From an uncultured Mycoplasma sp. (GTDB lineage Bacteria > Bacillota_I > Bacilli_A > RF39 > UBA660): a stretch of DNA of 50,400 bases. The notes under the pieces are model-generated. The model made no database searches. It worked only from the letters and a program-made list of their open reading frames with translations, and had not been told where the DNA came from. The stretch covers positions 1-50,400 of the forward strand of contig CAZCLV010000001.1 of NCBI GenBank assembly GCA_964499645.1, written 5' to 3'. This document shows, piece by piece, positions 20 through 18,979 of the stretch; position 1 is the stretch's first letter; each line of letters begins with the position of its first letter. The translations under genes were made by a program, and so were the position numbers.

Positions 20-55
20 AAAAAAAGTGGAGCACCGTAGTGCTCCTTCAGGGGG
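20..55 (-). terminator. Intrinsic terminator module: 7-bp stem, tetraloop and U7 on the minus strand, preceded by CCCCCUGAA. Probable end of the ten-gene operon.
   Basis: Plus strand shows A7 at 20-26, GGAGCAC 29-35 / GTGCTCC 40-46 perfect inverted repeat with loop CGTA, then TTCAGGGGG at 47-55. Confidence 0.75.
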
Positions 56-95
56 AAATATTATTATCAGTTCGTAACAATTTAATAATAGATTA

Positions 96-125
96 AAGTC
101 TTATAAAATAAGGCTTTTTAATTTT
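96..125 (+). terminator. Hairpin AAGTCTTAT-AAA-ATAAGGCTT followed by a T-rich tract. Terminator-like on the plus strand, weaker on the minus strand (C-A mismatch).
   Basis: 9-bp inverted repeat 96-104/108-116 with one G-U pair on the plus RNA, then TTTTAATTTT. Confidence 0.35.
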
Positions 126-239
126 CTTAAATTTACTAAAATTTACTAAAATAACTTTATCATTGACATTTAGTATCTAGTTTTGGTATCTGAAAAATTT
201 TAATCATCTATTTCTAAAACAAAGAACTATTATATCTTA

Positions 240-1043
240 TCAATATTTTTTTATTCTTTCCAACGGACAAGTTAGACATCTTAAATAACCAGTTTCTTTT
301 ACTGTGTCATATATATCCATTACTTCTACTTTAAATTTTTTTTCTTTTAAAGCTCTAATTAAATCATCATGTCTTTTTTGTACTATGACAACATTATCCC
401 CTAAACAAATTACATTCGTTACTAATTCATCTTGTTCGCTTTTATCAACATAAATAATATTTGTAAATAACTCTTCTATTATATTTATTGATTCTTCTTC
501 TAACCCATCTTTATATACAATCACTGTATCTTTTGATATTGGATTAAATATACAATCTAAATGAACAAAAGGAAAATATGGATTAGGATTTTTCATATAT
601 AAAGGAATAATTCTATACTCTGGTGAAAAAGTATCATTCATAAACTTTAAACCATTTTCATTTGTTCTATTTCCTTTTTGACCAACAAAGATAATATCAT
701 TATAAAGTAGAACATCTCCGCCTTCGACAATTGTATCACCATATAAATAAATTCTATTTTTCCCATCTATTTTATCTAATATATCTTTGGCGGATTCTAT
801 TTCCAATTGTCTTATACTTTCTTTCATATGACAAATTAACATTTTATTTCCAATTACAATAAATGGATCTCTAACAAACATTTGATATCTATCATTATTC
901 TGTTTTTGAGTCATAACAATTTCTACATTATATTTCTTTAATATATCTAATAATTGTTTTTGCTGACTTGAGTATTCTTCATCTACTGGCGCTAATAACA
1001 CTTTAGTTAATTTATCATATTCATTTTTTACATTCAAACGCAT
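240..1043 (-). CDS. Guanidino-group-modifying enzyme superfamily protein (DDAH / amidinotransferase / arginine-deiminase fold)
   Basis: Motifs MFVRDPF, VEGGDVL, GNRTN, VHLDCIF and C-terminal GYLRCLTCP (candidate catalytic Cys). Last gene of the operon, 3 nt after the upstream stop. Confidence 0.75.
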   Translation of the reverse strand: MRLNVKNEYDKLTKVLLAPVDEEYSSQQKQLLDILKKYNVEIVMTQKQNNDRYQMFVRDPFIVIGNKMLICHMKESIRQLEIESAKDILDKIDGKNRIYLYGDTIVEGGDVLLYNDIIFVGQKGNRTNENGLKFMNDTFSPEYRIIPLYMKNPNPYFPFVHLDCIFNPISKDTVIVYKDGLEEESINIIEELFTNIIYVDKSEQDELVTNVICLGDNVVIVQKRHDDLIRALKEKKFKVEVMDIYDTVKETGYLRCLTCPLERIKKY

Positions 1044-1046
1044 TAT

Positions 1047-1655
1047 TTATCCTATTAAATCAGTGAAGTCTTCTACATAATAATCTGCAACTTCTTTTAT
1101 TTCTTTTAGTTCATCATTAGTAAAAGGATAATTCTTATTTTTAGCCCATATAGTAGAAATTCCAATATTTTTTGCTGCTTTTAATTCAAATGGCATATCA
1201 CAAATTGCTACTACCGTGGATTTATCAGATACCTTAACTAAATCTAAGGCTTTATTATATAATTCTTCATCTGTAAATTTACATTCGAAAAGTGTTTCAC
1301 TAGCAATTAAATCAAACTTTTCAAAAGGAAATGTTTTATTAACTTCCTCATTTTTTAACATAGTTTTATTCGTTAATTCACATTTATTAACAACTACTTG
1401 AGAAAGGCCATTATCTTTAAAATAATTTAAAGCTTTATCAGCATTAGCTCTATATCCCAATGTTTTATAAGCATTAGCTGCTATTTCTTCAGAAGCCTTA
1501 CCAACTTCCCCTTTACTAACACTTCCATATTTTTCCGCTACTAACTTATCCATGTTATACCACATAACTTCAGTATCAAATAATGTACCATCTAAATCCC
1601 AACAAATAAATTTAATATTTGGTAATGATTTTAATAATTTATTTACCTTTTTCAT
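1047..1655 (-). CDS. HAD-superfamily hydrolase/phosphatase
   Basis: Motif I WDLDGTLFDTE near the N-terminus. GGAGG Shine-Dalgarno upstream of the ATG. Confidence 0.75.
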   Translation of the reverse strand: MKKVNKLLKSLPNIKFICWDLDGTLFDTEVMWYNMDKLVAEKYGSVSKGEVGKASEEIAANAYKTLGYRANADKALNYFKDNGLSQVVVNKCELTNKTMLKNEEVNKTFPFEKFDLIASETLFECKFTDEELYNKALDLVKVSDKSTVVAICDMPFELKAAKNIGISTIWAKNKNYPFTNDELKEIKEVADYYVEDFTDLIG

Positions 1656-1663
1656 ATTTCCTC

Positions 1664-2449
1664 CTAGTTATCAATTATTTCATCTGTCATTTCATTAAAG
1701 CGTAATCCATTAACTAAAATTGATTCCATTCCATCTTCAATAATATGTCCAAACGATAATTCTGGAACTTCTTCAGGATTACAGAAGAATGGTCTTTCAT
1801 AACCTTGAGGACTAAATACTAACTTATAAATTTTGTTATCTCCAAATATAACAATATTTCTTGTATCTTTACTTAATTTAATAGGATTATTACTTTTCTT
1901 TCTAGCATGTCCTACATTTAAAGGTCTTTCTTCATCCCATTGCTTTTCAACATATAAAATACCTTTATATTTTTCTTTAAAGTACTCTAAATTATCTTCT
2001 GCCACTTGAGGATCTTTATTTAATAATCTCATAGAACGATCATGGTATTTACCTCTTGAAACGTAAACATAAACAGCATCAATATACTTGGTTTTCTTAG
2101 CGAATATATCTATCATTTTTTCTACTCTAGTACGATCAACACAGTTAGTAAAGAACCATACTTCATGAACCTTAATTTTATTTTTAACAATATTATCATA
2201 CATTCTTTGAACTAAATCTAATTCTAAAGATGGCTCTCCTCCTAATATTTTTAAAATATTTATTTCTTTAAAAGGTTTCATAGAAGCATCTATCATATCT
2301 ATAGTCATAGAACATTTACCAGGTCCACCTTCACTACAATAACCAACACAATTTAAATTACACTTTTGAGTGATTAGATATTCTAGTTCTTCTATCTTCA
2401 TATTATCCTTATCAAAATATTTTTTAAATGTCTCATATTTCTTATTCAT
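1664..2449 (-). CDS. Radical-SAM-type enzyme with atypical cluster motif CNLNCVGYC (Cx3Cx3C)
   Basis: N-terminal Cys triad-like motif followed by the GGEP SAM-binding motif (ILGGEPSLE). GGAG SD upstream. Confidence 0.6.
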   Translation of the reverse strand: MNKKYETFKKYFDKDNMKIEELEYLITQKCNLNCVGYCSEGGPGKCSMTIDMIDASMKPFKEINILKILGGEPSLELDLVQRMYDNIVKNKIKVHEVWFFTNCVDRTRVEKMIDIFAKKTKYIDAVYVYVSRGKYHDRSMRLLNKDPQVAEDNLEYFKEKYKGILYVEKQWDEERPLNVGHARKKSNNPIKLSKDTRNIVIFGDNKIYKLVFSPQGYERPFFCNPEEVPELSFGHIIEDGMESILVNGLRFNEMTDEIIDN

Positions 2450-2463
2450 ACAAACTCTCCTTC

Positions 2464-3429
2464 TTACTTATATACATTATTTTTTAACTTTCTAACACTT
2501 TTTAACCTTTTATCATTGAATGATAAATAATTATATTCAAAAATAGAAGGTAAATTATTATCAACTAATATCTTGTCTAGCTTTCTGCTTGAACCTTGGA
2601 AACGAGGATTAATCTCAATAAAATATAATTCATTATTTGTATATATATAATCTATTCCTAAAACTCCTCTATAACCAAGTTCTTTTAATTTCAAACATAT
2701 CTTTGTTGTATAATCCAAAAATTTCTTTCTTACATCCTTTTTAATCTTAATATCATAAAAAGAATCTACATATTCAATTTTTTCTCCAATTTCTAAATCT
2801 TGCATTGAAGGTGGAAAAATAATAAAATTACCACTTCCTATAACACAATTAATATTATATGGAATATTATCTTTCATATAGAAAGATATTATATACAACT
2901 CATCTGGTCTTAATTTATTTTTAATATCTTTCCAATTATCTTTATCACATAGAAATGTTTTGGATCCTCCACTACCAAGTGGATGTTGAACAACTAACAT
3001 TTCTCCTTTAGGACTTAATTTATTAAAATCAAAATCTTTATCTTTAATATATTGATATTCCAACATTGAAACCATTCCTTGAAATAATTCTCTCATTTCT
3101 TTTTTATTATTAAATAAACTAATTAAATAATCACTATTCTTACAAATTAATTTAGCATTACTAGGAATATCACATTGAGAAACTATTTTATAATCATGTG
3201 CCATAATTTCAAATGGTTCTTTTATTGTTTTTAATAATTCGTTATATATCTTTATTTCTCTAGGATTACTATCTGGATTCCAATATTCAAATTCTAATAC
3301 ATGATCTAAAGTATTAGTTGTATAAGATATATTCTTTTCACTATTATTACCAAACAAAGTAATAGAATAATCAAAAAAATTAGAATTCTCAATAGTTATC
3401 TCTTTTGGACCTACATAAACACGTTTCAT
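2464..3429 (-). CDS. ATP-grasp family ligase
   Basis: C-terminal GVLGIDYIY...LYFIEINPRFQGSS, typical of the ATP-grasp Mg/ATP site. Confidence 0.7.
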   Translation of the reverse strand: MKRVYVGPKEITIENSNFFDYSITLFGNNSEKNISYTTNTLDHVLEFEYWNPDSNPREIKIYNELLKTIKEPFEIMAHDYKIVSQCDIPSNAKLICKNSDYLISLFNNKKEMRELFQGMVSMLEYQYIKDKDFDFNKLSPKGEMLVVQHPLGSGGSKTFLCDKDNWKDIKNKLRPDELYIISFYMKDNIPYNINCVIGSGNFIIFPPSMQDLEIGEKIEYVDSFYDIKIKKDVRKKFLDYTTKICLKLKELGYRGVLGIDYIYTNNELYFIEINPRFQGSSRKLDKILVDNNLPSIFEYNYLSFNDKRLKSVRKLKNNVYK

Positions 3430-3438
3430 ATATTAACC

Positions 3439-4476
3439 TTATAAAACATTATGTGTGCATGGCTTACACAATGGTCCCATTTTAACTTTATATTTCTTAC
3501 AAATTTTTTCACTTTTCTCTTTAGCTTCAATAAATAAATCAGCTTTTGGTGGGAAATTAGCTTCGCCATACGGGAATAATGGTGATAATACTGGATTGAC
3601 TCCAATCTTAGCTAGTTTTTCTACACCTTTTAATGTTTCTTCTAAAGGTTCAATACCAACAATCAACAAAGAACGAACTCTATCTTTTCCAAATATCTTA
3701 ACTGCTGTTTCTAAAAACTTAAGATAATTTTCTTGACCAATAGCATATTTTTCTGGACAGTATTTTTTTAAATAATCAGGATGATTTAATTCCATATTAA
3801 TAGACAAGCCATATACCCCAACATCTTTTAAATGTTGAATATATCCTTCATATTGTAAACTATCATTATAACTAGTAAATCCCCTTGGAGTCATCATAAT
3901 ATCCATCTCGTAATCGTAATACTTCTTTGTAAAATGATCATACATATCAGTAATTGCTTCTAAATCTCTTTCATATACTGAACCACTTGATATTAATATA
4001 TGTCTCGTATTAGTTTGTTCTAAAGCTACTTCTAAAGCTTCTTCCATACCTTTAATAGAATTTAATTCATATTTATATTCAACAGCATTACAGAATTTAC
4101 AATTATTAGAGCAACCACTCATTAATTGTAAACGAGTACGATCTGTGTATGTATTTACATATACACATATTTTTTTACCATCAATTATCATTTCATCTCT
4201 CATATAATCTGGTGGTGTAATTACTGTAGTTTCTATTTTATCTTTTCCATCGCTAATATATAATTTTCCATCTTCGGTAATTAATTTATAATGTGAAGTT
4301 TTTTCAACACCAATAGTTGCATAAGTATCTTCATATTGTAATGAAATACCACTACAAGTAATATAATCATCCATCAACCAAATATCCGATTGCTTATCAA
4401 GTACTTTCTTAGTTTCCTTTGAAACTTTAATTCCTTCTTCAAGAAGTTTTGCTTTTAAAATAAATCCTTTCTCCAT
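3439..4476 (-). CDS. Radical SAM enzyme (canonical Cx3Cx2C) with an N-terminal extra domain of about 100 aa
   Basis: SGCSNNCKFCNA motif. GGAGG SD upstream. Confidence 0.8.
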   Translation of the reverse strand: MEKGFILKAKLLEEGIKVSKETKKVLDKQSDIWLMDDYITCSGISLQYEDTYATIGVEKTSHYKLITEDGKLYISDGKDKIETTVITPPDYMRDEMIIDGKKICVYVNTYTDRTRLQLMSGCSNNCKFCNAVEYKYELNSIKGMEEALEVALEQTNTRHILISSGSVYERDLEAITDMYDHFTKKYYDYEMDIMMTPRGFTSYNDSLQYEGYIQHLKDVGVYGLSINMELNHPDYLKKYCPEKYAIGQENYLKFLETAVKIFGKDRVRSLLIVGIEPLEETLKGVEKLAKIGVNPVLSPLFPYGEANFPPKADLFIEAKEKSEKICKKYKVKMGPLCKPCTHNVL

Positions 4477-4488
4477 ATACGTCCTCCT

Positions 4489-5661
4489 TTATTTATCTTC
4501 ATTATCTAAAATATCTTTAATTCTTTGTCTAATACTCCTAGAATCTGTCATTTTCATAATATCTTTCCATAATGGATAACAATGTTTACATTTAGGAATA
4601 TCTTCTAAAAATTTAATATCATATGTAGCATTAAATTTCTTTATTCCTTCTATGTATTCTCCTGTACATAAAGAGCAATTAGAAGAAGTTAAATGTGGGA
4701 ATACTTCATTTCTTCCCTCAAATCCTACTCCTTGGCTTCCACTTAAGACTTCCTCATCAAAATATCCTCCGATTCTAATATCTAAATTTTGATTAGGTAA
4801 AGCCTTATAAATACCTTTAACAATTTCTTCTATACTCCATAACCAAGGTACTCTATATTGCCCCATATCATATAAATAATTGGCTAAAGAATAATCTTGT
4901 AAAGAAGTAGGCTCAATAGATACTGCATCAAATCCCATATTGAAGCAATCAATAGAAGTTTGAATAGCATCTAAGACAGCTTCTCTTTCTGTTAAAAAGA
5001 TTGGTTTAAAATTAACATATGCTAATGCTTTATAGCCATACTTATGTAATCTTTTAATAGATTTTTTTATTGTTTCTAAATGTTCTAATCCTTTATGATG
5101 ACATAACTCTCTAATTGTTTTATTAGTAGATTCAACACCTATTCCTACTTCAACCAATCCTGAATATACATCTTTAATATTTTTTATTGCATCATCTGTA
5201 ACATATTCTGCTCTAGATTCTACAATAACTTTCTTAACTCCATCATATTGATTAAGAGTATTAAAAATATAATGTATTACTGGTTTTGATACTTCATTTT
5301 CATTAAACAGACTACCTAAGTTATATAAACATAAAACAGAATAATCATTTAAATTAAATTTAAAGTTTTCTTTTTCAATAGCTGTACCATCTAATACGCT
5401 ATCCCATTGGGCTTTATAATTCTTATCAGTTACTTTATGTATTGGAGTTCCATTGAAATGAGAACACATAGAACAACCTCCTGTTTTTTTATAATGTTCA
5501 CATCCATTAGCTCTTAATACAACCATAATACGATCAATTATTTTACCTTCATAGAAAAACTTATTAATCTCAATTTCTGCTAATTTATTATTATTAAATT
5601 TCTTTAAAATCGTATCATCTCTTAAAGATTTGATTTTCTTTTCTACGATATCTTTAACCAC
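4489..5661 (-). CDS. Radical-SAM-like enzyme of the Elp3/YhcC/TIGR01210-like type, with Cx8Cx2C and C-terminal CxxC...CxxC
   Basis: ANGCEHYKKTGGCSMCSH motif, C-terminal NCSLCTGEY...KCKHCYP. GTG start overlaps the upstream stop by 1 nt. Confidence 0.55.
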   Translation of the reverse strand: MVKDIVEKKIKSLRDDTILKKFNNNKLAEIEINKFFYEGKIIDRIMVVLRANGCEHYKKTGGCSMCSHFNGTPIHKVTDKNYKAQWDSVLDGTAIEKENFKFNLNDYSVLCLYNLGSLFNENEVSKPVIHYIFNTLNQYDGVKKVIVESRAEYVTDDAIKNIKDVYSGLVEVGIGVESTNKTIRELCHHKGLEHLETIKKSIKRLHKYGYKALAYVNFKPIFLTEREAVLDAIQTSIDCFNMGFDAVSIEPTSLQDYSLANYLYDMGQYRVPWLWSIEEIVKGIYKALPNQNLDIRIGGYFDEEVLSGSQGVGFEGRNEVFPHLTSSNCSLCTGEYIEGIKKFNATYDIKFLEDIPKCKHCYPLWKDIMKMTDSRSIRQRIKDILDNEDK

Positions 5662-7031
5662 TACTTCACATCCTTACATAAATTAATTACTGGTCTATAT
5701 TTAGTTCCTTTTAACATAGGGAATTCTTCAACCATTTCTATTTTTAATTCCATAGATTCCGGTATTAATAAATATATACTTTTTCTAATAACATCTAAAT
5801 CTAACTTGAAATCGCCAGGAATAAGATATAATACTAACTCTCCTTTTTTATATTGAACAAATTGATATCTTAATCCATGTACTGGAATATTAAATTCCAA
5901 ATACCAATTATAGGCAATATCCATAAATGAAGATGCTGGAACATATTTATTTTTACCTATCAAAATACTATCCATAAAACGTCCTTGTATTTTTCTCATT
6001 GTCCTACAATTATTATGACATCCACAAGAAATTGGTTTATCTAATATTACTAAATCTCCTTGATTATATTTAATAATTGGAGTTGAAGTATTTAATAGAT
6101 TAGTTCCTATTAATATTCCTTCTTCTCCGCATCTAACTTTTTTAAAGGTTTTTGGATTAACAGCTTCTACATAACAAGCATCCTCTTCCAAATGATATGT
6201 ATGATAAGGGCACTCTAAAGCTATTCTTGTTAATTCCTCACTACTATATTCATCAACTATTTTTACATTCAATTCTTTTTCTAATTCTTTTCTAAAAGAT
6301 CTACTGGATTGTTCTGAATGAACAATAACAGTTTCGACTCCATACTTACTTAAATCAATTCTTTTTTCACTTATTCTTTCAAGATAAGTAGGATATGTTG
6401 AAATTATTCTTGGTTTTATTTCTTTTATCTTAGAAATAGCTTCTTCAATCTTAGTTGTTGTAGGTAAAAATTCTGTTTTATATAATCCATCTACTTCTGT
6501 AATCCACCAAGGACACGTATATATAAATAAAACAGTATCTTTAGGATCATAATGATTTTCTGATTGCATATAATATTGTCTAAATCCTTGAATAGTATCT
6601 TCATATATAGCTTCTTTAGATACAGCTATTGTTACAAATTTACCACTTGATCCAGAACTACGCGTTGAAAGGTTAAAATCTTCAACATTTTTTGCTATAT
6701 CATTAGGAAAACCTTTAATCAATTCTTCTTTAGTCAAAATTGGTAATTTATCATAATCTTCCCAAGTCTTTATATCACCTTTTTTAAAACCAATAGCATC
6801 ATATTTTTTTCTATATAAAGGAATGTTTTCGTAAGCGTAATCAACAATAAACGATATTCTCTTTAATTGCCATTTTCTTATTTCTTCATAACTTTGATAT
6901 GGAAAATCACGAATACTTTCCCACTTTTTCTTCAGCATTTCTTTAATTCTATTTTCATGGATATTACTTTTAAAAATTTCTTTTGAATTTTTCTTTAAAT
7001 TAATATAATCATCATTTGTAAAATCATTCAT
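5661..7031 (-). CDS. Adenylate-forming ligase, phenylacetate-CoA ligase (PaaK) / coenzyme F390 synthetase / CapK-like
   Basis: STRSSGSSGKFVTI AMP-binding loop and KYNQGDLV motif. AGAGG SD upstream. Confidence 0.7.
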   Translation of the reverse strand: MNDFTNDDYINLKKNSKEIFKSNIHENRIKEMLKKKWESIRDFPYQSYEEIRKWQLKRISFIVDYAYENIPLYRKKYDAIGFKKGDIKTWEDYDKLPILTKEELIKGFPNDIAKNVEDFNLSTRSSGSSGKFVTIAVSKEAIYEDTIQGFRQYYMQSENHYDPKDTVLFIYTCPWWITEVDGLYKTEFLPTTTKIEEAISKIKEIKPRIISTYPTYLERISEKRIDLSKYGVETVIVHSEQSSRSFRKELEKELNVKIVDEYSSEELTRIALECPYHTYHLEEDACYVEAVNPKTFKKVRCGEEGILIGTNLLNTSTPIIKYNQGDLVILDKPISCGCHNNCRTMRKIQGRFMDSILIGKNKYVPASSFMDIAYNWYLEFNIPVHGLRYQFVQYKKGELVLYLIPGDFKLDLDVIRKSIYLLIPESMELKIEMVEEFPMLKGTKYRPVINLCKDVK

Positions 7032-7054
7032 AATTATTACCTCTTTCTAAATTA

Positions 7055-7112
7055 AAAAGTGATGTTAAAAACTATAATTAAATTACCCATCTAATTACAT
7101 TACATCACTTTT
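7055..7112 (-). promoter_or_regulatory. Intercistronic 11-bp stem with 36-nt loop followed by U5, in the only sizeable gap of the operon. Possible partial terminator or RNA stability element.
   Basis: AAAAGTGATGT 7055-7065 pairs with ACATCACTTTT 7102-7112. Starts 2 nt after the GNAT stop. Confidence 0.5.
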
Positions 7113-7113
7113 A

Positions 7114-7620
7114 TTACAATAACATTTCAAAACCATATTCATTCAATGAAAAATCATCATGAATTATTTCTTTATAAATTCCGGAAACCTTTTTAAAGCC
7201 ACAATTAGAATATAAATTAATAGCGGGAGTATTAATTTCACTAACTAATAGTCGCAAATACTTTGCATCTTTGCTTTTAGCAATTTTACAAGCCTCATTA
7301 ATTAGTTTTTTACCAATCCCCTGGTGCAAATATTTAACATTAACACCTAATCTATTTATTACATAAGCTTTGGCAGCATCATTTTCCCATTCTAAACCAT
7401 CAAAAGAATTAACAAATTCGTATAGAGAAAAAACACCTAGTATCTCTTTATCATTTTTTAATAAATAAAGATTTTGTTGTTCGATATCAGACTCAAAAAC
7501 CTCATTTGGATAATATTCATTCCAAATTTTAATATCATTTTCATACATATTTTTAATTATTCTTGTATACATTTCTTTTATTTGATTTAAATCTTCTAAT
7601 CTGGCTAAAACAACTTCCAT
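7114..7620 (-). CDS. GNAT family N-acetyltransferase
   Basis: HQGIGKKLINEA motif-A-like segment. The track ORF starts at GTG 7629, but ATG 7620 sits 5 nt after AAGAGGTG and is the more plausible start. Confidence 0.75.
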   Translation of the reverse strand: MEVVLARLEDLNQIKEMYTRIIKNMYENDIKIWNEYYPNEVFESDIEQQNLYLLKNDKEILGVFSLYEFVNSFDGLEWENDAAKAYVINRLGVNVKYLHQGIGKKLINEACKIAKSKDAKYLRLLVSEINTPAINLYSNCGFKKVSGIYKEIIHDDFSLNEYGFEMLL

Positions 7621-7625
7621 ACTTA

Positions 7626-8768
7626 TCACCTCTTCATCGACAATTTTTTATCTTCTTTTTTTATATATGTTAAATAGTTACTTAACAAATCTTTTAACTC
7701 AACTTCATAGTGCAACAAATTATCTATAGTAATTGTTTCTTTAGAACTATGAATTCCATCAGGAATCCCCGGACCATATATTACTATATTTGCATTTGAA
7801 AATAATTCTTGAAAATAACCTGCTTCAGTAGCATATTTCGCATCTAGCGTTGACTTTCCACCAATATCTGCTTGCTTATTTAAAAACTCACTTTCTCTTT
7901 TTTCAAATGGAGGTATTGATAGCACATTAAACAATTTTGATTCACCATAGCAATTACTTATTTCATTATGCTTTCTAATTAAATATCCGGAAATTGCATC
8001 AAGAATCATTTTATTAGATGTTCTAATTCCAAAACAAAGAGAACTCATATCAGGAACTACATTTGATGGAGATTTACCACCATCTATATGTGTAATACAA
8101 ATAGCAGCATCATTTGATGTTTGTTTCTTAACTTTCATTATTTCTGAACTAAATAGTGTTTGAAGTTCTATTGCATTTATTCCTAACTCTGGGGTTCCAG
8201 AATGACAGGAAATGCCATTCATAATGCTTACATAAATAGAATTTCCCTTACTTGATACATAATAATCTAAATTTGTTGGTTCCCCAACAATAACCATGCT
8301 AGAATTTATATTTCTATTTTTAAGTTCACTAATTATTTGTTGAATTCCTATTAAATAATGTTCTTCATCACTAGTTAAAGAAATTATTACTGGTATATCT
8401 AAACTTTTTAAATAATCTAAATTGGCTATTATTGTAGCTACAAAAGATTTCATATCTGAAATACCTAATCCTTTAAGATTATTTCCATTAATTATAACAT
8501 TACAATTATGACCTTCACTTTCTCTAACTGTATCTATATGTCCAGATAATATTATAGAATCTTCAATATCCCTTAACTTGTGATTAACACCAATTAACAA
8601 ATGAATATTACCATTTTTATCCTCAATTTCTATTTTATCACAACAGTCATCAAAAGTAGTCCGTAAATATTCTATTATCTGATGCTTTTTTCCAATTTGA
8701 CCATATGAAGGAATACTTACGAGATCTTTTAAAATTGTAAGAACGTTATTTTCTTTTCTTGCTTCCAT
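7626..8768 (-). CDS. M20 family metallo-peptidase/deacylase (ArgE/DapE-like)
   Basis: SGHIDTV, ISDMKS and TSDEEH metal-ligand motifs. Start overlaps the ABC-F 3' end by 23 nt. Confidence 0.8.
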   Translation of the reverse strand: MEARKENNVLTILKDLVSIPSYGQIGKKHQIIEYLRTTFDDCCDKIEIEDKNGNIHLLIGVNHKLRDIEDSIILSGHIDTVRESEGHNCNVIINGNNLKGLGISDMKSFVATIIANLDYLKSLDIPVIISLTSDEEHYLIGIQQIISELKNRNINSSMVIVGEPTNLDYYVSSKGNSIYVSIMNGISCHSGTPELGINAIELQTLFSSEIMKVKKQTSNDAAICITHIDGGKSPSNVVPDMSSLCFGIRTSNKMILDAISGYLIRKHNEISNCYGESKLFNVLSIPPFEKRESEFLNKQADIGGKSTLDAKYATEAGYFQELFSNANIVIYGPGIPDGIHSSKETITIDNLLHYEVELKDLLSNYLTYIKKEDKKLSMKR

Positions 8769-10410
8769 ATTCTAGTGCCTTTTCTTCAGTTATTAATGAT
8801 GCTCTGTATTCATCATAATTACCCCAATATTGGTTAACTTTGCCATCTCCAAATACTAAAATTCTATTAGCAAATTTATTTATAAAAAATCTATCATGAC
8901 TAATAAATATTAACGTGCCAGAAAATTCTTCTAACGCTTCTTCCAATACCTCCTTAGTAGGAATATCTATATGGTTAGTTGGTTCATCAAAAATCAAAGT
9001 ATTTATTTCTTGTTGTAATAATTCAGCCATCTTAATTTTCATTTTTTCGCCACCAGATAAGTTTTTAACCCTTTTATTCACATCTTCAACATCAAATCTA
9101 AATCTAGCTAAAATACTACGACATCTCTGTTCGGGCAATCCAACTGCTCTTGTAAAATATTCTAATAAAGTTTGATTGCCATTTTCAAATTCAATTATTT
9201 GTGGTATATATCCTATTTTAACACTTGGGCCAACAAATACTTCTCCACTAACAGGTAGTTCTTGTTTACCCATAATTGTTTTAACAAAAGTTGATTTACC
9301 TGTTCCATTTTCGCCTAAAAGTGCTACTCTTTCACCTGCGCAAACTTCTAGATTTATACTATCAAGAATTTTCTTTCCATCTGGTATTTTCACAGATAAA
9401 TCATTAGCAATTATTATTTTTTTGCTTGATTTATTTTCTTCTAAGAAAGACATATTTAATTTTTTTTGTACAGTCGGTTTTTTAATAGATTTTTCTCTCA
9501 TTCTTTGTGTTCTTTCCCACAACGTTTTGCCTTGTTTAGTTAATGCAGAACTATTTCGACCCATACCTAAACTCATAAATTGTTTAGCCTTAGCCTCTAA
9601 TTGCTTTATTGCTTCTTGTTCATCACCATATTGTGTCATTTGTTTTTCAAACTCTATTTCACGTTGCGTTAAGTATCCTGAATAATTAGTGGCATATATT
9701 TTTCCAATTCCATAATCATCGATTGCCAATATTTGATTAGCCATTTTATCTAAAAAATATCTATCATGCGATACTATAATTGATGCACCTTTAAATGATT
9801 TTATATAATCTTCTAACCATTCAATTCTTTTCAAATCAAGATGATTAGTAGGTTCATCAAGTAATAATAAATCTGGTTCTATCAATAAAGATTTAGCAAG
9901 TTGAACCAATGTTTGTTCTCCTCCAGATAAAGTACTATATGATTGTTCTAACATACTTTTATTTAATTCCAATCCATTGATAACTGTGTTGATTTTTACA
10001 TCAACATCATATCCTCCCATTAAATTAAATTTTTCTAGTAAAGCACAATATTTTTCTAAAATTTTTTCACTATATTCTTCGCTTACTTTTCGCTCATATT
10101 CTTTTAATTGTTTTTCAATTATATTTATTTCGCCAAAAGCATCCTTTAGTATTTCGTAAACAGTCCTATCATCCTCTATGCTTGAACTTAATTGATCTAA
10201 GTATGCAACTTTGGTACCTTTTTTTAAGTTTACTGTACCCCTGTCTGGCGTTTCAAGCCCAGCTATAATCTTTAAAATGGTTGATTTTCCACAGCCATTA
10301 GGTCCAACTATTGCAACTGACTCACCCTCATTAAGAGTAAATGATACATCTTCAAACAATTGCTCGTATCCAAAATTCTTTGCTAATTTATTAGCATCCA
10401 GTATTAACAC
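8746..10410 (-). CDS. ABC-F family ATPase (two ABC cassettes, no transmembrane domain), a translation-associated/ARE-like class
   Basis: GPNGCGKST...LSGGEQ...LLLLDEPTNHLD, then GENGTGKST...LSGGEK...LIFDEPTNHID, with a charged linker of about 80 aa. GTG 10410 lies 8 nt after GGAGG and is preferred over the track start at 10497. Confidence 0.85.
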   Translation of the reverse strand: MLILDANKLAKNFGYEQLFEDVSFTLNEGESVAIVGPNGCGKSTILKIIAGLETPDRGTVNLKKGTKVAYLDQLSSSIEDDRTVYEILKDAFGEINIIEKQLKEYERKVSEEYSEKILEKYCALLEKFNLMGGYDVDVKINTVINGLELNKSMLEQSYSTLSGGEQTLVQLAKSLLIEPDLLLLDEPTNHLDLKRIEWLEDYIKSFKGASIIVSHDRYFLDKMANQILAIDDYGIGKIYATNYSGYLTQREIEFEKQMTQYGDEQEAIKQLEAKAKQFMSLGMGRNSSALTKQGKTLWERTQRMREKSIKKPTVQKKLNMSFLEENKSSKKIIIANDLSVKIPDGKKILDSINLEVCAGERVALLGENGTGKSTFVKTIMGKQELPVSGEVFVGPSVKIGYIPQIIEFENGNQTLLEYFTRAVGLPEQRCRSILARFRFDVEDVNKRVKNLSGGEKMKIKMAELLQQEINTLIFDEPTNHIDIPTKEVLEEALEEFSGTLIFISHDRFFINKFANRILVFGDGKVNQYWGNYDEYRASLITEEKALEYGSKKRK

Positions 10411-10437
10411 AAAACATCCCTCCTTATTTTTAACAAT

Positions 10438-10545
10438 ATTTACATTTATAACGTGAGCAACAATTATTACTTCTTTATAAAAATTATGCAAAAACACGGA
10501 TTGTAAGTAATAATAAATCAGTTCATATTGATTATAAATGTAAAT
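10438..10545 (-). promoter_or_regulatory. Structured 5' leader of the ABC-F gene: nested 14-bp and 10-bp perfect inverted repeats
   Basis: Plus ATTTACATTTATAA 10438-10451 vs TTATAAATGTAAAT 10532-10545. Inner pair ATTATTACTT 10463-10472 vs AAGTAATAAT 10505-10514. Confidence 0.55.
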
Positions 10546-10577
10546 TATAATATGGCAATCACCTAAAATTTCTCTTT

Positions 10578-10606
10578 ATTATATAGGTTTATTCAAAAAA
10601 AGTCAA
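10578..10606 (-). promoter_or_regulatory. Consensus sigma-A-type promoter of the ten-gene operon
   Basis: Minus strand TTGACT (10606-10601), 17-nt spacer, TATAAT (10583-10578). Confidence 0.75.
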
Positions 10607-10630
10607 CATATACTTCTGGTAAATTATTTT

Positions 10631-10694
10631 ATGACACTATGACACATTAATCGAGAGACCACTACTAGCAAAGATAGTGTCAAGTGTCATTTTT
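10631..10694. repeat. Inverted repeat built from four TGACAC half-sites with a 31-nt spacer and flanking T run. Either a bidirectional hairpin/insulator or a protein-binding site.
   Basis: ATGACACTATGACAC 10631-10645 vs GTGTCAAGTGTCAT 10677-10690, then TTTT. Confidence 0.5.
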
Positions 10695-10843
10695 AATTCC
10701 TTTTTGGCAATTTACTATAGTCATATTTATCCATAATTGGATTAAGTAAATCCTGGGATTTATTCAATTGTTCTACAGCTTGTTGCAATGTATATTCACT
10801 TTTACCTTCTTTAAGTAATTTTAAATGTTCTGTTAATAAATTA

Positions 10844-11017
10844 AAACAAAAAGATTGGACTAAAGATGGTCGTAAATGGATTTTTCAAACTAGATATACT
10901 GATTTATATGGTAATGTTAAAAAATATAAGTCAAAAAAATTTCTAAATAAAAATGAAGCTCAAGAGGCAGAAAGATTATTCTTTTTAGAACTAGATAAAT
11001 ATAGACCTGATAATAAT
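10844..11017 (+). pseudogene. Start-less in-frame 5' extension of the integrase ORF, encoding an arm-type N-terminal-domain-like segment
   Basis: The frame is open from the stop at 10718-10720 to ATG 11018 with no ATG/GTG/TTG. It translates to KQKDWTKDGRKWIFQTRYTDLYGNVKKYKSKKFLNKNEAQEAERLF, typical of phage-integrase N-termini. Confidence 0.5.
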
Positions 11018-11986
11018 ATGACTTTTAAAGAATTATATCTTGCTTTTTATGAATATCAAAAAGATAAAGTTAAAGAAACAACTATTCATACTTATTTAGA
11101 TAGAATGAGATATATGCAATATTTAGATAATATTAAAGTTAAAGAATTTAATCTACAACATTATGAAATGTGGAGAAAAAAGATATTAGAATGTAAATTA
11201 TCTAATAGAACTAGAAACTATATTTATAAGTTTTTAAAAACTATTATAAATTTTGGAACTAAATGGTATGGACTTAATTTTAATAATATATATCCTAAAA
11301 TGACTAATTTCACAGATCCAAACGAAAGAAAAAAGGAAATGGAATTTTGGACTTATGATGAATTTAGTAAATTTATATCAGTTGAAGATAATTTAACATT
11401 TAAAACTTTCTTTAAAACATTATATTATTGTGGACTTCGAAAAGGTGAAGCAAGAGCATTAGATTGGAAAGATATAGATTTTATTAATAATACTCTAATA
11501 GTTAGAAAAGGTTTATCTGATAATGTTAATGGAATTAAATATATAATATCTAGCCCAAAGACTTTAAATAGTAATAGAACACTACCTTTATCAAAAGAGT
11601 TAGTAAATGATTTAAAAAAGTTAAAACAAAGTGTAATGGAATATACTAATTTTAAAGAAGAATGGTTTGTATTTGGTAATGACTTACCTCTTGGTGATGA
11701 TGTTATCAGAAGAAGAAAAAATAATAATTGTGTTTTAGCAGGGGTTAAACAAATTAGAATACATGATTTTAGGCATAGTTGTGCTAGTTTACTAATTAAC
11801 AATGGTGCTGACATAACACTTGTTGCTAAATATCTAGGACACACAAAAATTGATGAAACTCTAAACACATATTCACATATGTTTAAAAATAAATTAAATA
11901 ATATTATTGGTCTTATTGATAATTTGAATGAACAATCTAATAAAGAATATGAAAATAAAAAAGATGACTTTGAAATAAGTATATAA
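11018..11986 (+). CDS. Tyrosine site-specific recombinase/integrase (core-binding plus catalytic domains; N-terminal arm domain apparently cut off)
   Basis: GLRKGEARAL (Arg), IHDFRHSCAS (HxxR), LGHTKIDETLNTYSH (His/Tyr). Confidence 0.85.
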   Translation: MTFKELYLAFYEYQKDKVKETTIHTYLDRMRYMQYLDNIKVKEFNLQHYEMWRKKILECKLSNRTRNYIYKFLKTIINFGTKWYGLNFNNIYPKMTNFTDPNERKKEMEFWTYDEFSKFISVEDNLTFKTFFKTLYYCGLRKGEARALDWKDIDFINNTLIVRKGLSDNVNGIKYIISSPKTLNSNRTLPLSKELVNDLKKLKQSVMEYTNFKEEWFVFGNDLPLGDDVIRRRKNNNCVLAGVKQIRIHDFRHSCASLLINNGADITLVAKYLGHTKIDETLNTYSHMFKNKLNNIIGLIDNLNEQSNKEYENKKDDFEISI

Positions 11987-11993
11987 GTAAAAA

Positions 11994-12023
11994 CTGATAA
12001 GCAGATTAGTGCTTATCAGTTTT
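11994..12023. terminator. Bidirectional terminator hairpin between the convergent integrase and C26-peptidase genes
   Basis: CTGATAAGC 11994-12002 / GCTTATCAG 12011-12019, flanked by A and T runs. The right arm overlaps the last codons of the minus-strand gene. Confidence 0.6.
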
Positions 12024-12731
12024 ATTATGCTTTGCTATATAGTCAATAAATCCTTTAAAAATATCATTTTGATTTTTTTTATTTTGAATTAATTCAGGGT
12101 GCCATTGAACTCCTATATTAAAACCATTTTCATTATATTCTAACAATTCAATAATGTTATCATCAGAGTATCCTTTAATTAAATATTTCCCAGGATCGCT
12201 AATTTTACATTTATGTATGCTATTTACAACAAAATCTTCCATAGCAATTAAATCATATAATTTAGAATCTTTTTCAATTTTAACAGCATGCATTTCCATA
12301 TTTTCTAAACTAAAATGTTTTTTCTTTAAATAATCATAATTTTCAAAATCAATTTTCCCACCAGTTGCTAATGCCATATTTATACATCCACAACAAATCC
12401 CAAGAATTGGCTTATTATTTTTAATGCAATATCGTACTATTTCTTGCTCATAATTACATATAACTATTCCACCCTCTAGTATGATTCCATCACATATATC
12501 AAGGGTTGAATATAGATCATTAATAGATTTGTCATCCATTATATAATTATGATAAGAAAAAGGTTTTTTTTCTTCAAATTCTAAAGATTGACTTTGCGGA
12601 ATTATTCCAATAGAAATAGCATTATTTTTATTAACTGCGTCCTTTATTTCGTTGCTTATGCATATTTTATTCCATATAATATCATCACATTGTGGTTTTC
12701 CAACTATTCCTATAATAGGTTTTTTATTCAA
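12006..12731 (-). CDS. Class-I glutamine amidotransferase-like / peptidase C26 (gamma-glutamyl hydrolase, PuuD-like)
   Basis: GICCGCINMA nucleophile-elbow region and VQWHPE His-Glu motif. Confidence 0.7.
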   Translation of the reverse strand: MNKKPIIGIVGKPQCDDIIWNKICISNEIKDAVNKNNAISIGIIPQSQSLEFEEKKPFSYHNYIMDDKSINDLYSTLDICDGIILEGGIVICNYEQEIVRYCIKNNKPILGICCGCINMALATGGKIDFENYDYLKKKHFSLENMEMHAVKIEKDSKLYDLIAMEDFVVNSIHKCKISDPGKYLIKGYSDDNIIELLEYNENGFNIGVQWHPELIQNKKNQNDIFKGFIDYIAKHNKTDKH

Positions 12732-12735
12732 TTCT

Positions 12736-13332
12736 TTAATCCTCTTTTCTTTTTAATTTTAAAACTAAATCTGCCGATTTATGTTCATTTCTACGCTTAT
12801 CCACTTCTTCAATGCTTAGCGGAATAAATCCATCATATATTGAAGAAGCAATTTCTTGCTTTTCTTGTCGGTTATTTTGGATTGAATAACAAGCAACCCA
12901 GTTATCCTTTTTTTCAATTTCATGATAATTGTTACCAATTAATTCATAGCTATTTTTATCAAATAAATGAACAACAGCATTATTATCCAATCTAGTTTGA
13001 ACATAAATGCTATCAACATTAGATGAAATTAAAAGTTTTGTAAGTTCTTTTATTGATTCAGAAGCATATCCCATTCCTTTAAATTCCTCAAAAACATATA
13101 ATCCATTTATTTTTGCAATTTTATCACTACATAAATGAACCATCATATAACCTATTACTTGCTGTTCATCTTCAATTTTAAAGATTATTTTTTCTCCACT
13201 CTCAAATTGAGACATATTTTTTTGCATCCACGTTGAGTAAAAAGGATACTCTTCAATAAATATTGCCGTTAATGCTTCAATACCTTCATTTAATTCTATT
13301 TTTGTTTTTAATCTGTGTAAAATCATATACAT
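12736..13332 (-). CDS. GNAT family acetyltransferase
   Basis: VIGYMMVH...FEEFKGMGYASESIKEL acetyl-CoA-binding-like motif. Confidence 0.65.
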   Translation of the reverse strand: MYMILHRLKTKIELNEGIEALTAIFIEEYPFYSTWMQKNMSQFESGEKIIFKIEDEQQVIGYMMVHLCSDKIAKINGLYVFEEFKGMGYASESIKELTKLLISSNVDSIYVQTRLDNNAVVHLFDKNSYELIGNNYHEIEKKDNWVACYSIQNNRQEKQEIASSIYDGFIPLSIEEVDKRRNEHKSADLVLKLKRKED

Positions 13333-13376
13333 TCCCCCTTAATTGAAAAATATATTATAGCAAATTAACAGATTTG

Positions 13377-13805
13377 TCAATTTAATTTCCTTGGTTTTAT
13401 AATAATTCTAGCACTTTCATCATAATTCCAAATATTTAAATGTCCTTTTGCTAATATTGGTTCTATCGGTTCAATATCTTCAAATACCCATGCATATCTA
13501 CCAGCCTCATAAGAACCACAATAATACTCTATTTTATTTTTTTTCATTTCATTTACGTATTTTTCATCCATATAAATGCAATCCACTAATTTTCCCCTAC
13601 AAATAATATTGCCATAATTCATTTTCATATTAATAATTAATTCATTAACCACATCATTTGTTAAATACTCTTTTGCTAATGTTTTCCCACTAGCATGAAT
13701 ATATAATTCACCACGATAGTTAGTATTCCAACTTCTAGTTTCTATATGTTTAATATTTTTCATTAGCAAAGTGGCAAATGGTTCTTTTATACTAATAACT
13801 TTCAT
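13377..13805 (-). CDS. ASCH (PUA-like) domain protein
   Basis: N-terminal ISIKEPFATLLMKNIKHIETRSW pattern typical of ASCH domains. Confidence 0.55.
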   Translation of the reverse strand: MKVISIKEPFATLLMKNIKHIETRSWNTNYRGELYIHASGKTLAKEYLTNDVVNELIINMKMNYGNIICRGKLVDCIYMDEKYVNEMKKNKIEYYCGSYEAGRYAWVFEDIEPIEPILAKGHLNIWNYDESARIIIKPRKLN

Positions 13806-13884
13806 GTTATTTTATCATTCCTTTCATTATCAATTTTATCATATTATTTGATTGTAAGTGCACTTTAAATATTATTTTTTCAAA

Positions 13885-13905
13885 AAATGCCACCCAAATG
13901 CCACC
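13885..13905. repeat. Direct repeat AAATGCCACC x2 at 11-bp phasing, upstream of the ASCH operon. Possible operator.
   Basis: 13885-13894 and 13896-13905 are identical, flanked by GCACTTT direct repeats. Confidence 0.35.
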
Positions 13906-13959
13906 TAAAGCACTTTTTATAAAAAACAAAAACTCGCAAACCATCATAAATACTAAGAC

Positions 13960-14066
13960 AAAAAAAGTGTCCAGCATTTCTGCTGGACTTCAGGGGGTTT
14001 TGGTTGAATACCACTTTTCACTCTTTAACCGTAAAAAGTAGTGCGGGTCTTTATTTTACCTCGCAG
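13960..14066 (-). ncRNA. Candidate small RNA (about 105 nt) with its own promoter, a 5' hairpin, an unpaired C-rich motif (ACCCCCUGAA) and an intrinsic terminator. Family not recognised.
   Basis: Consensus-like promoter at 14071-14099. GCGAGGU/ACCCGC 5' hairpin. Terminator GTCCAGCA-GAAA-TGCTGGAC + U7 (plus 13960-13988). No start codon or ORF inside. Confidence 0.5.
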
Positions 14067-14070
14067 TTTA

Positions 14071-14099
14071 ATAATAAATTATTTTTTAATAAAAGTCAA
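14071..14099 (-). promoter_or_regulatory. Sigma-A-type promoter for the candidate sRNA
   Basis: Minus strand TTGACT (14099-14094), 17-nt spacer, TATTAT (14076-14071). Confidence 0.6.
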
Positions 14100-14112
14100 C
14101 TGATTTTTAATT

Positions 14113-18904: not shown

Positions 18905-18979
18905 TGGAGCAAATGACCGGGATCGAACCGGCATCCTAGCCTTGGCAAGGCCATGTACTAACCATTGTACTACATCTGC
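18905..18979 (-). tRNA. tRNA-Gly (anticodon GCC), CCA encoded
   Basis: Hand-folded cloverleaf: acceptor GCAGATG/CATTTGC, D stem GTAC/GTAC, anticodon loop TTGCCAA, T loop TTCGATC, 3' TCCA. Confidence 0.9.

Follow-up and report, generated by a model that had tools for sequence, protein, structure and literature searches.

The 50,400-nucleotide stretch of DNA analysed here (referred to as the window) comprises positions 1 to 50,400 of contig CAZCLV010000001.1 of assembly GCA_964499645.1, from an uncultured Mycoplasma sp. of the GTDB lineage RF39, and holds near its beginning a ten-gene operon headed by an ABC-F gene that was investigated as a candidate small-molecule pathway. The G+C content of the window is about 25% throughout. 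The listing of its open reading frames (ORFs) contains ten consecutive co-directional ORFs from 240 to 10497, all read on the minus strand, and their number and junctions match exactly those given in the original prediction, which was made from the letters alone. In transcription order, the longest ORFs at 8746-10497, 7626-8768, 7114-7629, 5661-7031 and 4489-5661 encode an ABC-F ATPase, an M20 metallo-deacylase, a GNAT N-acyltransferase, a PaaK-like adenylating ligase and a radical-SAM enzyme (rSAM1); they are followed by a second radical-SAM enzyme (rSAM2, 3439-4476), an ATP-grasp ligase (2464-3429), a small radical-SAM-like protein (rSAM3, 1664-2449), a HAD-family phosphatase (1047-1655) and an enzyme of the ADI/DDAH/amidinotransferase fold (240-1043). 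The ABC-F and M20 genes overlap by 23 nt and the M20 and GNAT genes by 4 nt; an 82-nt gap separates the GNAT gene from the PaaK-like gene, which overlaps the rSAM1 gene by 1 nt, and the junctions after rSAM1 are gaps of 12, 9, 14, 8 and 3 nt in that order. The predicted family memberships were upheld for all ten products in Pfam and NCBIfam profile searches, that of rSAM3, which falls below the PF04055 threshold, being the weakest.

A sigma-70-type promoter, TTGACT-17-TATAAT, lies on the minus strand at 10606-10578, where the original prediction had placed the start of the operon. Promoter-like hexamers as a class are not above chance in the window (89 found vs 85.5 expected from shuffled sequence), and the call is made because the same hexamers with the same spacing are kept at the same position upstream of the ABC-F gene in two related loci, L014 (uncultured Bacilli) and L015 (Ca. 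Coprovivens), which are only about 75% identical overall. The longest ORF of the first gene begins at 10497; the true start is almost certainly instead the GTG at 10410, which stands 7 nt after AAGGAGGG and gives the same 554-aa product that was chosen by gene callers on identical contigs. The 5' leader of the ABC-F gene (10411-10577, minus strand, about 167-176 nt) holds a 14-nt inverted repeat, ATTTACATTTATAA / TTATAAATGTAAAT. As its fold is no better than that of shuffled sequence (z = 0.98), no riboswitch or attenuator is claimed for it, and a search of the whole window against Rfam at gathering thresholds returned nothing in the operon or leader, its one match being a tRNA-Gly. A terminator-like hairpin with a T-run, absent from the window's copy, stands ahead of the ABC-F gene in L015 (4956-4996, a scan hit) and in L014 (5095-5140, seen by eye only, the scan having found none); in these two leaders, pairing of the hairpin's 5' arm with a conserved upstream TTTGCCC is conceivable and would yield an attenuator. 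In a third relative, L060, almost no leader precedes the ABC-F gene. At the far end of the operon, the strong hairpin terminator foreseen at 20-46 (minus strand) consists of a 7-bp G+C-rich hairpin, GGAGCAC-TACG-GTGCTCC (46-29), followed by a T-run.

A profile of rSAM1 scanned against one genome per GTDB species yielded 42 loci, whose ORFs were labelled by blastp with the ten proteins of the window and those of a second cluster type as references; about 45 related loci were compared overall. At the family level, defined by at least 48% identity to rSAM1, there are 39 loci, 33 bacterial and 6 archaeal (L039, L040, L042, L043, L046 and L048). The PaaK-like gene lies directly upstream of rSAM1 in 37 of these 39. 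In the two exceptions (L031, 8961-9902; L037, 9050-9961) an ORF of 303-313 aa occupies its place, and the L031 copy only gives a borderline match to the FemAB/MprF-C-like family PF09924 (29.1 bits vs 27.5); if this assignment holds, another kind of acyl- or aminoacyl-transferase has replaced the ligase there, which hints that the core step transfers an activated, probably amino, acid and forms an amide. The evolutionarily conserved unit is the PaaK-like ligase together with the RaSEA/Elp3-like rSAM1, and the rSAM2 and ATP-grasp pair is a second conserved layer, while rSAM3, the HAD phosphatase and the amidino-fold enzyme are peripheral genes of the window's own sub-lineage. This corrects a view of the ten genes as the unit.

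Two types of cluster are built upon this core. Type A, to which the window belongs, combines it with rSAM2 and the ATP-grasp ligase and usually also with ABC-F, M20 and GNAT genes. Among the loci compared rSAM2 is always paired with an ATP-grasp gene; they stand side by side in every type A locus (16 of 17) but L041, where a 114-aa ORF separates them. The co-occurrence in other genomes that the original prediction had proposed to look for was found: besides near-identical copies of the window's own block (99-100% identity), the complete ten-gene set occurs, in order, only in L014, L015 and L060, the proteins of L014 and L015 being 53-85% identical to those of the window. Other type A variants add radical-SAM/SPASM proteins, a second ATP-grasp ligase, a B12-radical-SAM enzyme, a lysine-2,3-aminomutase, methyltransferases and a CntK-like epimerase. 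Exporters are also encountered among them, namely a MatE protein in L045 and in the Clostridium butyricum loci L056 and L057, and a protein with ABC_membrane and ABC_tran domains (Pfam) in L037; ORFs of 575-578 aa in L031 and L051 correspond to the L037 exporter in size and position. The two C. butyricum loci come from a cultured species (GCA_963669125.1 and GCA_965251195.1). Their variant (6008-15769) runs in the order ATP-grasp, PaaK-like, rSAM1, rSAM2, ATP-grasp, MatE and ABC-F, with a GNAT gene on the opposite strand, and is flanked by a ParA gene and a cyclic-oligonucleotide-based anti-phage signalling system (CBASS).

Type B (L009-L011, L016-L030 and others) has only the PaaK-like and rSAM1 core in common with type A, and adds to this core a ThrC-like pyridoxal-phosphate (PLP) enzyme, an agmatinase-like enzyme, a diaminopimelate (DAP)/ornithine-decarboxylase-like enzyme and a second PLP enzyme whose best models (GntC, methylarginine aminotransferase and VioD) all act on arginine. 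Its arginine-directed PLP and agmatinase-like enzymes echo the amidino-fold enzyme of the window. Type B is syntenic over many metagenome-assembled genomes of gut Clostridia and is also found in Woesearchaeota, Methanosarcinales and other uncultured archaea, there without an ABC-F gene, and in one bacterium of the candidate phyla radiation (CPR); the rSAM1 proteins of these archaeal and CPR clusters are 48-55% identical to that of the window. The aenigmatarchaeotal locus L048 has the core pair on a contig too short for typing. The neighbour-joining tree of rSAM1 shows loci of the two types mixed with one another inside the bacterial clade, which implies that the core has recombined with different accessory sets; such shuffling is in line with the modular evolution typical of biosynthetic clusters.

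The pairing of agmatinase-like and DAP/ornithine-decarboxylase-like enzymes in type B is typical of polyamine routes, and raises the alternative that the metabolite made by the clusters serves the cell's own physiology, for instance as a compatible solute, a cofactor or a compound of the polyamine-like or guanidino type, with the ABC-F protein as a co-regulated translation factor. Synteny of type B in many gut Clostridia species, its occurrence in small-genome DPANN archaea and CPR bacteria, and the lack of an exporter in the window's cassette are all in its favour. It suits type B better than the window's type A, whose set has no polyamine-type enzymes, and it is opposed by the exporters of type A relatives, by the GNAT and M20 genes as a protect/deprotect pair, and by the patchy distribution and mobility of the cassette. 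It would also find it hard to explain a dedicated clade of ABC-F proteins that accompanies the core in nearly all bacterial loci and in many different arrangements, as described below, and it is on the whole considered unlikely.

The first core gene (5661-7031, minus strand) encodes an adenylating ligase of ANL class I. Its matches to TIGR02155 (E = 1e-36; 126 bits against an equivalog cut-off of 646) and to the PaaK structure 2y4o in the PDB (E = 1e-20), along with the P-loop SSGSSGK, indicate a PaaK-like fold only; no Pfam model matched it and no paa genes are present in the block. The second core gene (4489-5661, minus strand) encodes rSAM1, which matches the RaSEA model TIGR01210 with E = 4.5e-58 and 196.9 bits, below the cut-off of 212.15, and in which C54, C63 and C66 (CX8CX2C) are invariant. 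The best Foldseek matches of its AlphaFold2 model (mean pLDDT 81.5) were the radical-SAM domains of Elp3, with a template-modelling (TM) score of about 0.4 and 13-15% identity. Searches by sequence in the PDB gave no relative of rSAM1, used as a profile, or of rSAM2. As only generic radical-SAM neighbours (TM 0.4-0.5) were retrieved by Foldseek with both AlphaFold2 models, no specific function can be transferred to either enzyme.

The formation of archaeosine on archaeal tRNA involves the addition of lysine by ArcS, followed by its radical cleavage by RaSEA. The arrangement in the window is similar to the extent that rSAM1 is a clear RaSEA homologue that always stands beside a unit-attaching enzyme. 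It differs in that rSAM1 lies below the equivalog cut-off, that its partner is PaaK-like (Fem-like in two loci) and not the TGT-family ArcS, that no TGT, ArcS, Que, queuosine or preQ0 genes are found among the ten products, and that the rSAM1 family is mostly bacterial and resides within metabolite-type clusters. Elp3, which modifies U34 of tRNA (cm5), offers a second comparison: it is the closest structural neighbour of rSAM1, GNAT genes are frequent neighbours of the core pair, and the acyl thioester that acetyl-CoA provides to Elp3 could here come from an acyl-activating enzyme. The likeness is a resemblance only, with a TM score of about 0.4, a GNAT that is separate and absent from type B, and no tRNA-binding region. 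By analogy with both systems we would suggest, and hold loosely, that the PaaK-like enzyme attaches or activates a unit which rSAM1 then transforms by radical chemistry.

The same comparisons make it conceivable that the block modifies a macromolecule of translation, be it tRNA, rRNA, elongation factor P (EF-P) or a ribosomal protein. The PaaK-like enzyme would then activate a small acid or an amino acid for attachment to, or processing on, the RNA or protein by rSAM1; the appendage itself would come from the remaining enzymes, and the ABC-F would be a translation factor acting together with the component so modified. The only characterised relatives of rSAM1, by profile and by structure, modify tRNA; the GNAT gene beside the core pair in the window, L019, L026 and L050 recalls the radical-SAM and GNAT architecture of Elp3; the ABC-F is ribosome-associated and its clade is tied to the core; and EF-P is modified by an adenylating enzyme and a radical-SAM aminomutase (EpmA/EpmB). 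Yet there is no RNA-binding or TGT/ArcS-like domain in the ten products, rSAM1 remains under the RaSEA cut-off, MatE and ABC exporters recur in the relatives, and the cassette is mobile and strain-variable. Accessory sets that vary widely and a core exchanged between domains of life at 53-55% identity are likewise unexpected of a housekeeping modification, and this explanation is regarded as distinctly unlikely.

The second layer begins with rSAM2 (3439-4476, minus strand), a member of family NF045502 (130 bits vs a cut-off of 125) that also passes PF04055 (34.9 bits vs 29.5) and keeps an invariant CX3CX2C motif. Foldseek neighbours of its AlphaFold2 model (pLDDT 90.9) are LipA, MqnE, ThiH, HydE, HydG, BioB and NosL, at a TM score of about 0.5, all of them enzymes whose substrates are free small molecules or amino acids. 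The adjoining ligase (2464-3429, minus strand) is of the ATP-grasp_3 type (PF02655, E = 1.4e-12) and retrieved only biotin carboxylase fragments in the PDB sequence search. A small-molecule radical-SAM enzyme whose product would be coupled to an amine by the neighbouring ATP-grasp ligase is reminiscent of PylB/PylC, PylB belonging to the HydE/BioB/ThiH group, as do the fold neighbours of rSAM2; unlike that system, neither rSAM2 nor the window's ATP-grasp ligase gives a PylB/PylC match at E <= 0.01, and there is no PylD. The second ATP-grasp ligase of C. butyricum matches PylC weakly (E = 3e-7).

The small radical-SAM-like protein rSAM3 (1664-2449, minus strand) has no SPASM domain and is a marginal member of the superfamily, its PF04055 match (E = 1.9e-5) reaching 25.3 bits against a gathering threshold of 29.5; it also matches the N-terminal region of MoaA with E = 3.5e-8. 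Its cysteine motif, CNLNCVGYC...C, is CX3CX3C and atypical in comparison with the canonical CX3CX2C, with a fourth cysteine 7 residues past the motif (CNLNCVGYCSEGGPGKC), and is kept in L014. Identity to the radical-SAM/SPASM genes of the variant clusters is 23-26%. The ATP-grasp and rSAM3 genes are fused into one frame of 586-588 aa in L015 (12069-13835) and L060 (12225-13985), which implies that the two proteins work together.

Radical-SAM and ATP-grasp enzymes side by side could in principle mature a precursor peptide encoded nearby or elsewhere, as in pathways to peptides made by the ribosome and modified after translation (RiPPs). Graspetides are matured by ATP-grasp ligases, and rSAM3 and the radical-SAM/SPASM genes of the variants weakly match peptide maturases (PapB, HxsC and sactipeptide enzymes). 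However, the intergenic regions of six variant loci held no conserved precursor-like short ORF, the only conserved short ORF in them being a 79-aa helix-turn-helix (HTH) type frame on the opposite strand of L026 and L050; in the window, gaps of 3-14 nt and one of 82 nt leave no room for a precursor gene, in agreement with the original prediction, in which no obvious one had been seen. No recognition element, peptidase or leader-processing gene is present, and the variant clusters hold enzymes of amino-acid metabolism instead. A RiPP pathway is therefore judged very improbable.

The M20 protein (7626-8768, minus strand; PF01546 and M20_dimer) is an ArgE/DapE-like metallo-deacylase with 51.5 bits against a PF01546 threshold of 24.6; its matches to acetylornithine deacetylase models (E = 1e-34 to 8e-40) all lie below the cut-offs, and its best scores with the ArgE/DapE equivalog models are 137 and 120 bits vs cut-offs of 412 and 298. 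The GNAT (7114-7629, minus strand; PF00583, E = 1e-13) gives weak matches to small-molecule amine acetyltransferases (PaiA, Sat2/Sat4/STAT, AAC(3)-I and ArsN1) and to RimI. The HAD-family phosphatase (1047-1655, minus strand; PF13419, E = 1.2e-10) has an intact DxDxT motif (DLDGT). The last gene (240-1043, minus strand) encodes a guanidino-group-modifying enzyme of the ADI/DDAH/amidinotransferase fold (PF02274, 58.7 bits vs 22.8; PF19420, 41 bits), in which FVRDPF, EGGD, VHLD and, at the C-terminus, RCLTC fall in alignment on the catalytic Asp, His and Cys residues of ADI and SxtG, a pattern that by sequence alone accommodates a hydrolase as well as a transferase. The absence of a non-ribosomal peptide synthetase (NRPS) or polyketide synthase (PKS) module and of an exporter, as claimed in the original prediction, was borne out, the Pfam and NCBIfam matches of the ten products including no NRPS, PKS, carrier-protein, condensation, ketosynthase, membrane or exporter domain.

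The ABC-F ATPase (8746-10410, minus strand) is a protein of 554 aa with two nucleotide-binding domains and a linker and without a membrane domain; both ABC_tran domains and ABC_tran_Xtn were matched, and it passes NF000355 with 444 bits against a cut-off of 380. This last match is given little weight as a sign of a resistance-type ABC-F, as an OptrA-like neighbour outside the clade described here also passes. In a neighbour-joining tree the cluster-linked ABC-Fs of types A and B together form one clade, the CPR copy being their sole outlier; EttA, Vga(A), Vga(C), Msr(G), OptrA, PoxtA and the OptrA-like type B neighbour all lie outside it. Identity of the window's ABC-F amounts to 39% with a type B ABC-F and to 36% with the OptrA-like neighbour. 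The window's protein has 152 aa between the H-loop and the second Walker A, and the clade as a whole 147-152 aa, compared with 140 in EttA and 142 in OptrA, and with 172 and 175 in Vga(C) and Msr(G), respectively; relative to EttA or OptrA the linker of the clade has 7-12 residues more, with the extra residues aligned to the linker tip, and that of the window's protein is of intermediate length, near PoxtA in the alignment. Many type B clusters of Clostridia have a second ABC-F gene just downstream, of 630 aa in L009 (17562-19454), where it scores best with the OptrA model (696 bits, below cut-off) and groups with OptrA in the tree.

An ABC-F gene lies within 9 kb of rSAM1 in 30 of the 33 bacterial family loci and in none of the 6 archaeal ones, and it occupies at least 8 different positions or orientations across the loci. 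A dedicated clade of this kind suggests that the product targets the ribosome and that the ABC-F provides immunity, and the protein is proposed to be a ribosome-protection factor of the producer. Antibiotic producers carry ABC-F genes within their clusters (OleB, CarA, SrmB, TlrC, LmrC and VarM), and the window's protein has the domain architecture of these and of the resistance proteins Vga, Msr, Lsa, Sal, OptrA and PoxtA. It is embedded in a probably biosynthetic operon, passes the general ribosomal-protection-like model NF000355 and has a linker longer than that of EttA. It is unlike them in forming a separate clade. That no archaeal locus has an ABC-F gene would agree with a product directed against the ribosomes of bacteria; to our knowledge, however, archaea have no ABC-F proteins altogether, and the absence is for that reason predicted by either reading.

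The operon forms part of a cassette of about 10.8 kb (window 46-10835). An exact-protein look-up of rSAM1 found 10 contigs, and the cassette recurs at 99-100% identity in at least 8 metagenome contigs (L001-L008); human, rabbit, ruminant and chicken samples are represented among the matching contigs. By blastn, the window from 46 to 10835 is 99-100% identical to L001, L002 and L004, the homology ending at both ends, and the cassette recurs at about 75% DNA identity in uncultured Bacilli including Ca. Coprovivens. Downstream, homology ceases at the terminator, where a contig-specific hairpin follows the common TTTCCCCCTGAAG. The upstream boundary is a recombination joint at 10835. On its operon side lies the 3' remnant, of about 46 codons, of an XRE/HTH regulator (10689-10835, minus strand), of which L001 and L006 have an intact version upstream of the cassette, and on its other side a tyrosine integrase divergent from the operon (10838-11986, plus strand; PF00589, E = 2.4e-25). 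The integrase is 5'-truncated at the joint, its frame being open from 10838 with the first in-frame start codon at 11018, and it aligns to an intact 368-aa integrase that is situated on the other side of the cassette in L003; the integrase remnant in accessory DNA that had been noted beside the operon was thus confirmed. Beyond the integrase follow housekeeping genes (C26 amidotransferase, RecG, MutS and RsmI-like).

In the L003 copy, a TM2-domain gene and short ORFs occupy positions 1-1000, in place of the window's 7901-10835, and the intact integrase and a NERD-domain gene lie downstream. Megablast against annotated plasmids and phages found no match to the cassette, and tblastn found only distant relatives, namely TIGR01210-like genes of 27-32% identity on C. 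acetobutylicum pSOL1 (L058) and on the B. thuringiensis israelensis plasmid pAM65-52-1-360K (L059), and MSMEG_0568-family genes on rhizobial plasmids. One of the two TIGR01210-like genes lies within a cluster in which adenylation, carrier-protein, ketosynthase and AsnB genes are accompanied by ABC transporters, and the other beside two DUF1659/DUF2922 gene pairs; none of these plasmid-borne relatives is informative on function. Farther along the window, an ORF with collagen triple-helix repeats (18118-18849, plus strand) coincides with a local G+C peak of 33% and adjoins a tRNA-Gly(GCC) gene (18905-18979).

A position next to an integrase, along with the CBASS near the C. butyricum variant and a very weak match of rSAM3 to pVip (E = 7e-4), could be taken to mean that unrelated genes have come together by chance or that the block is an anti-phage defence island. 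Chance is effectively refuted by overlapping and tightly spaced genes between one conserved promoter and one terminator, and by co-conservation of the set down to 53% protein identity; besides the pVip hit, PADLOC gave only generic ABC-ATPase matches. This alternative is accorded next to no probability.

The combination had not been recognised as a characterised cluster in the original prediction, and no characterised homologous or syntenic pathway was found in the papers, the PDB and the collections of annotated plasmids and phages that were searched. Full-text literature searches gave no description of type A or type B clusters, and the source annotations are generic only ("radical SAM protein", "phenylacetate-CoA ligase family protein"). 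The core enzyme pair and the ABC-F lineage are undescribed, while a biosynthetic cluster with self-resistance is a known kind of system. The closest parallels are bacilysin, dapdiamide, tabtoxin and phaseolotoxin, which are built by stand-alone ATP-dependent ligases of the ATP-grasp or adenylating type and not by NRPS; of these, phaseolotoxin has an amidino-group enzyme in common with the window. Pairs of a GNAT and a deacylase that protect and deprotect are known from puromycin (Pac/NapH) and bialaphos (Bar/Dea), and the window's own pair would be a parallel to these. Unlike such ligase-built antibiotics, the window's pathway is centred on three radical-SAM enzymes, and the producers would be strict gut anaerobes. 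A nucleoside-antibiotic reading was also considered and dropped, no nucleotide- or sugar-handling enzyme being present in any variant.

Taken together, we assign a probability of roughly 55% to the reading that the block is a horizontally mobile, modular, non-NRPS operon for a small guanidino- or amino-acid-derived metabolite, which probably targets the ribosome and against which the ABC-F would confer immunity. A biosynthetic cluster for a small metabolite is favoured by the tight operon, the conserved core with swappable tailoring sets, the guanidino enzymes (amidino-fold in the window, agmatinase-like in type B), the horizontal spread across domains and the location in mobile DNA, and likewise by the two unrelated types of exporter in the relatives and by the aminomutase, epimerase and arginine-directed PLP enzymes, which make non-protein amino acids. 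The small-molecule pathway put forward in the original prediction gains support in this way from relatives that add exporters, an aminomutase, an epimerase-like gene and methyltransferases, and from ABC-F proteins that form their own clade; the function as a translation inhibitor is what we infer from the ABC-F and is not in itself a result.

The product is envisaged as a small amide, amino-acid-derived and containing or derived from a guanidino group, and the system is most likely not of the NRPS, PKS or RiPP type, with stand-alone ligases instead. In the proposed scheme, whose substrates and order of steps we infer from the enzyme families, rSAM2 with its ThiH/HydE/BioB/LipA-type fold would make or rearrange an unusual building block of the amino-acid type, and the ATP-grasp ligase, fused to rSAM3 in some relatives, would join this block to a second unit. 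The PaaK-like enzyme would adenylate a carboxylate and form a second amide or a thioester, and rSAM1, its obligate partner, would carry out radical chemistry on the activated or attached unit. The amidino-fold enzyme may install or remove an amidino group and the HAD phosphatase may remove a phosphate. The GNAT and M20 enzymes would serve as an acetylate/deacetylate pair that keeps intermediates harmless or releases the active compound, and the ABC-F would shield the producer's ribosomes.

Several observations weigh against the reading of the block as an operon for a ribosome-targeting metabolite. RaSEA and Elp3, the two relatives of rSAM1 that have been characterised, have tRNA and not free metabolites as their substrate. 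With respect to the ABC-F, NF000355 does not separate resistance-type from housekeeping proteins, the NCBIfam models for Vga, Msr, Lsa, Sal, OptrA, CplR and producer-type ABC-Fs all scored far below their cut-offs, and the linker is about 20 residues shorter than in Vga and Msr, which reach the peptidyl-transferase centre. The rSAM1 and ABC-F trees are quick neighbour-joining trees without support values. Type B is seemingly vertical in descent across a whole clade of gut Clostridia, which would also suit a physiological metabolite. The cassette in the window has no exporter of its own, and in the L003 copy homology stops inside the M20 gene, so that the ABC-F and M20 genes are missing while the biosynthetic genes are kept.

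The range of the PaaK-like and RaSEA/Elp3-like pair takes in gut Bacilli and Clostridia, including cultured C. butyricum, as well as CPR bacteria, DPANN and Methanosarcinales. We put forward more tentatively, as a possibility with the balance of probability against it, that the pair defines a new cross-domain class of ligase-and-radical pathways whose products share a new ribosome-directed pharmacophore, with a bacterial clade of ABC-F immunity proteins having evolved against it and a radical-SAM fold of tRNA modification having been recruited to small-molecule chemistry.

Should the biosynthetic reading be true, common gut commensals would carry a widespread and undescribed family of translation-targeting metabolites, which would amount to a new antibiotic scaffold from anaerobes, and the RaSEA/Elp3 branch of radical-SAM enzymes would have a new catalytic role. 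The accompanying ABC-F proteins would represent a new lineage and a possible reservoir of resistance genes. The cultured C. butyricum with its exporter-bearing variant is a ready experimental handle on these questions. If the product were physiological instead, the link between the core pair and a clade of ABC-F proteins would still be new translation biology.

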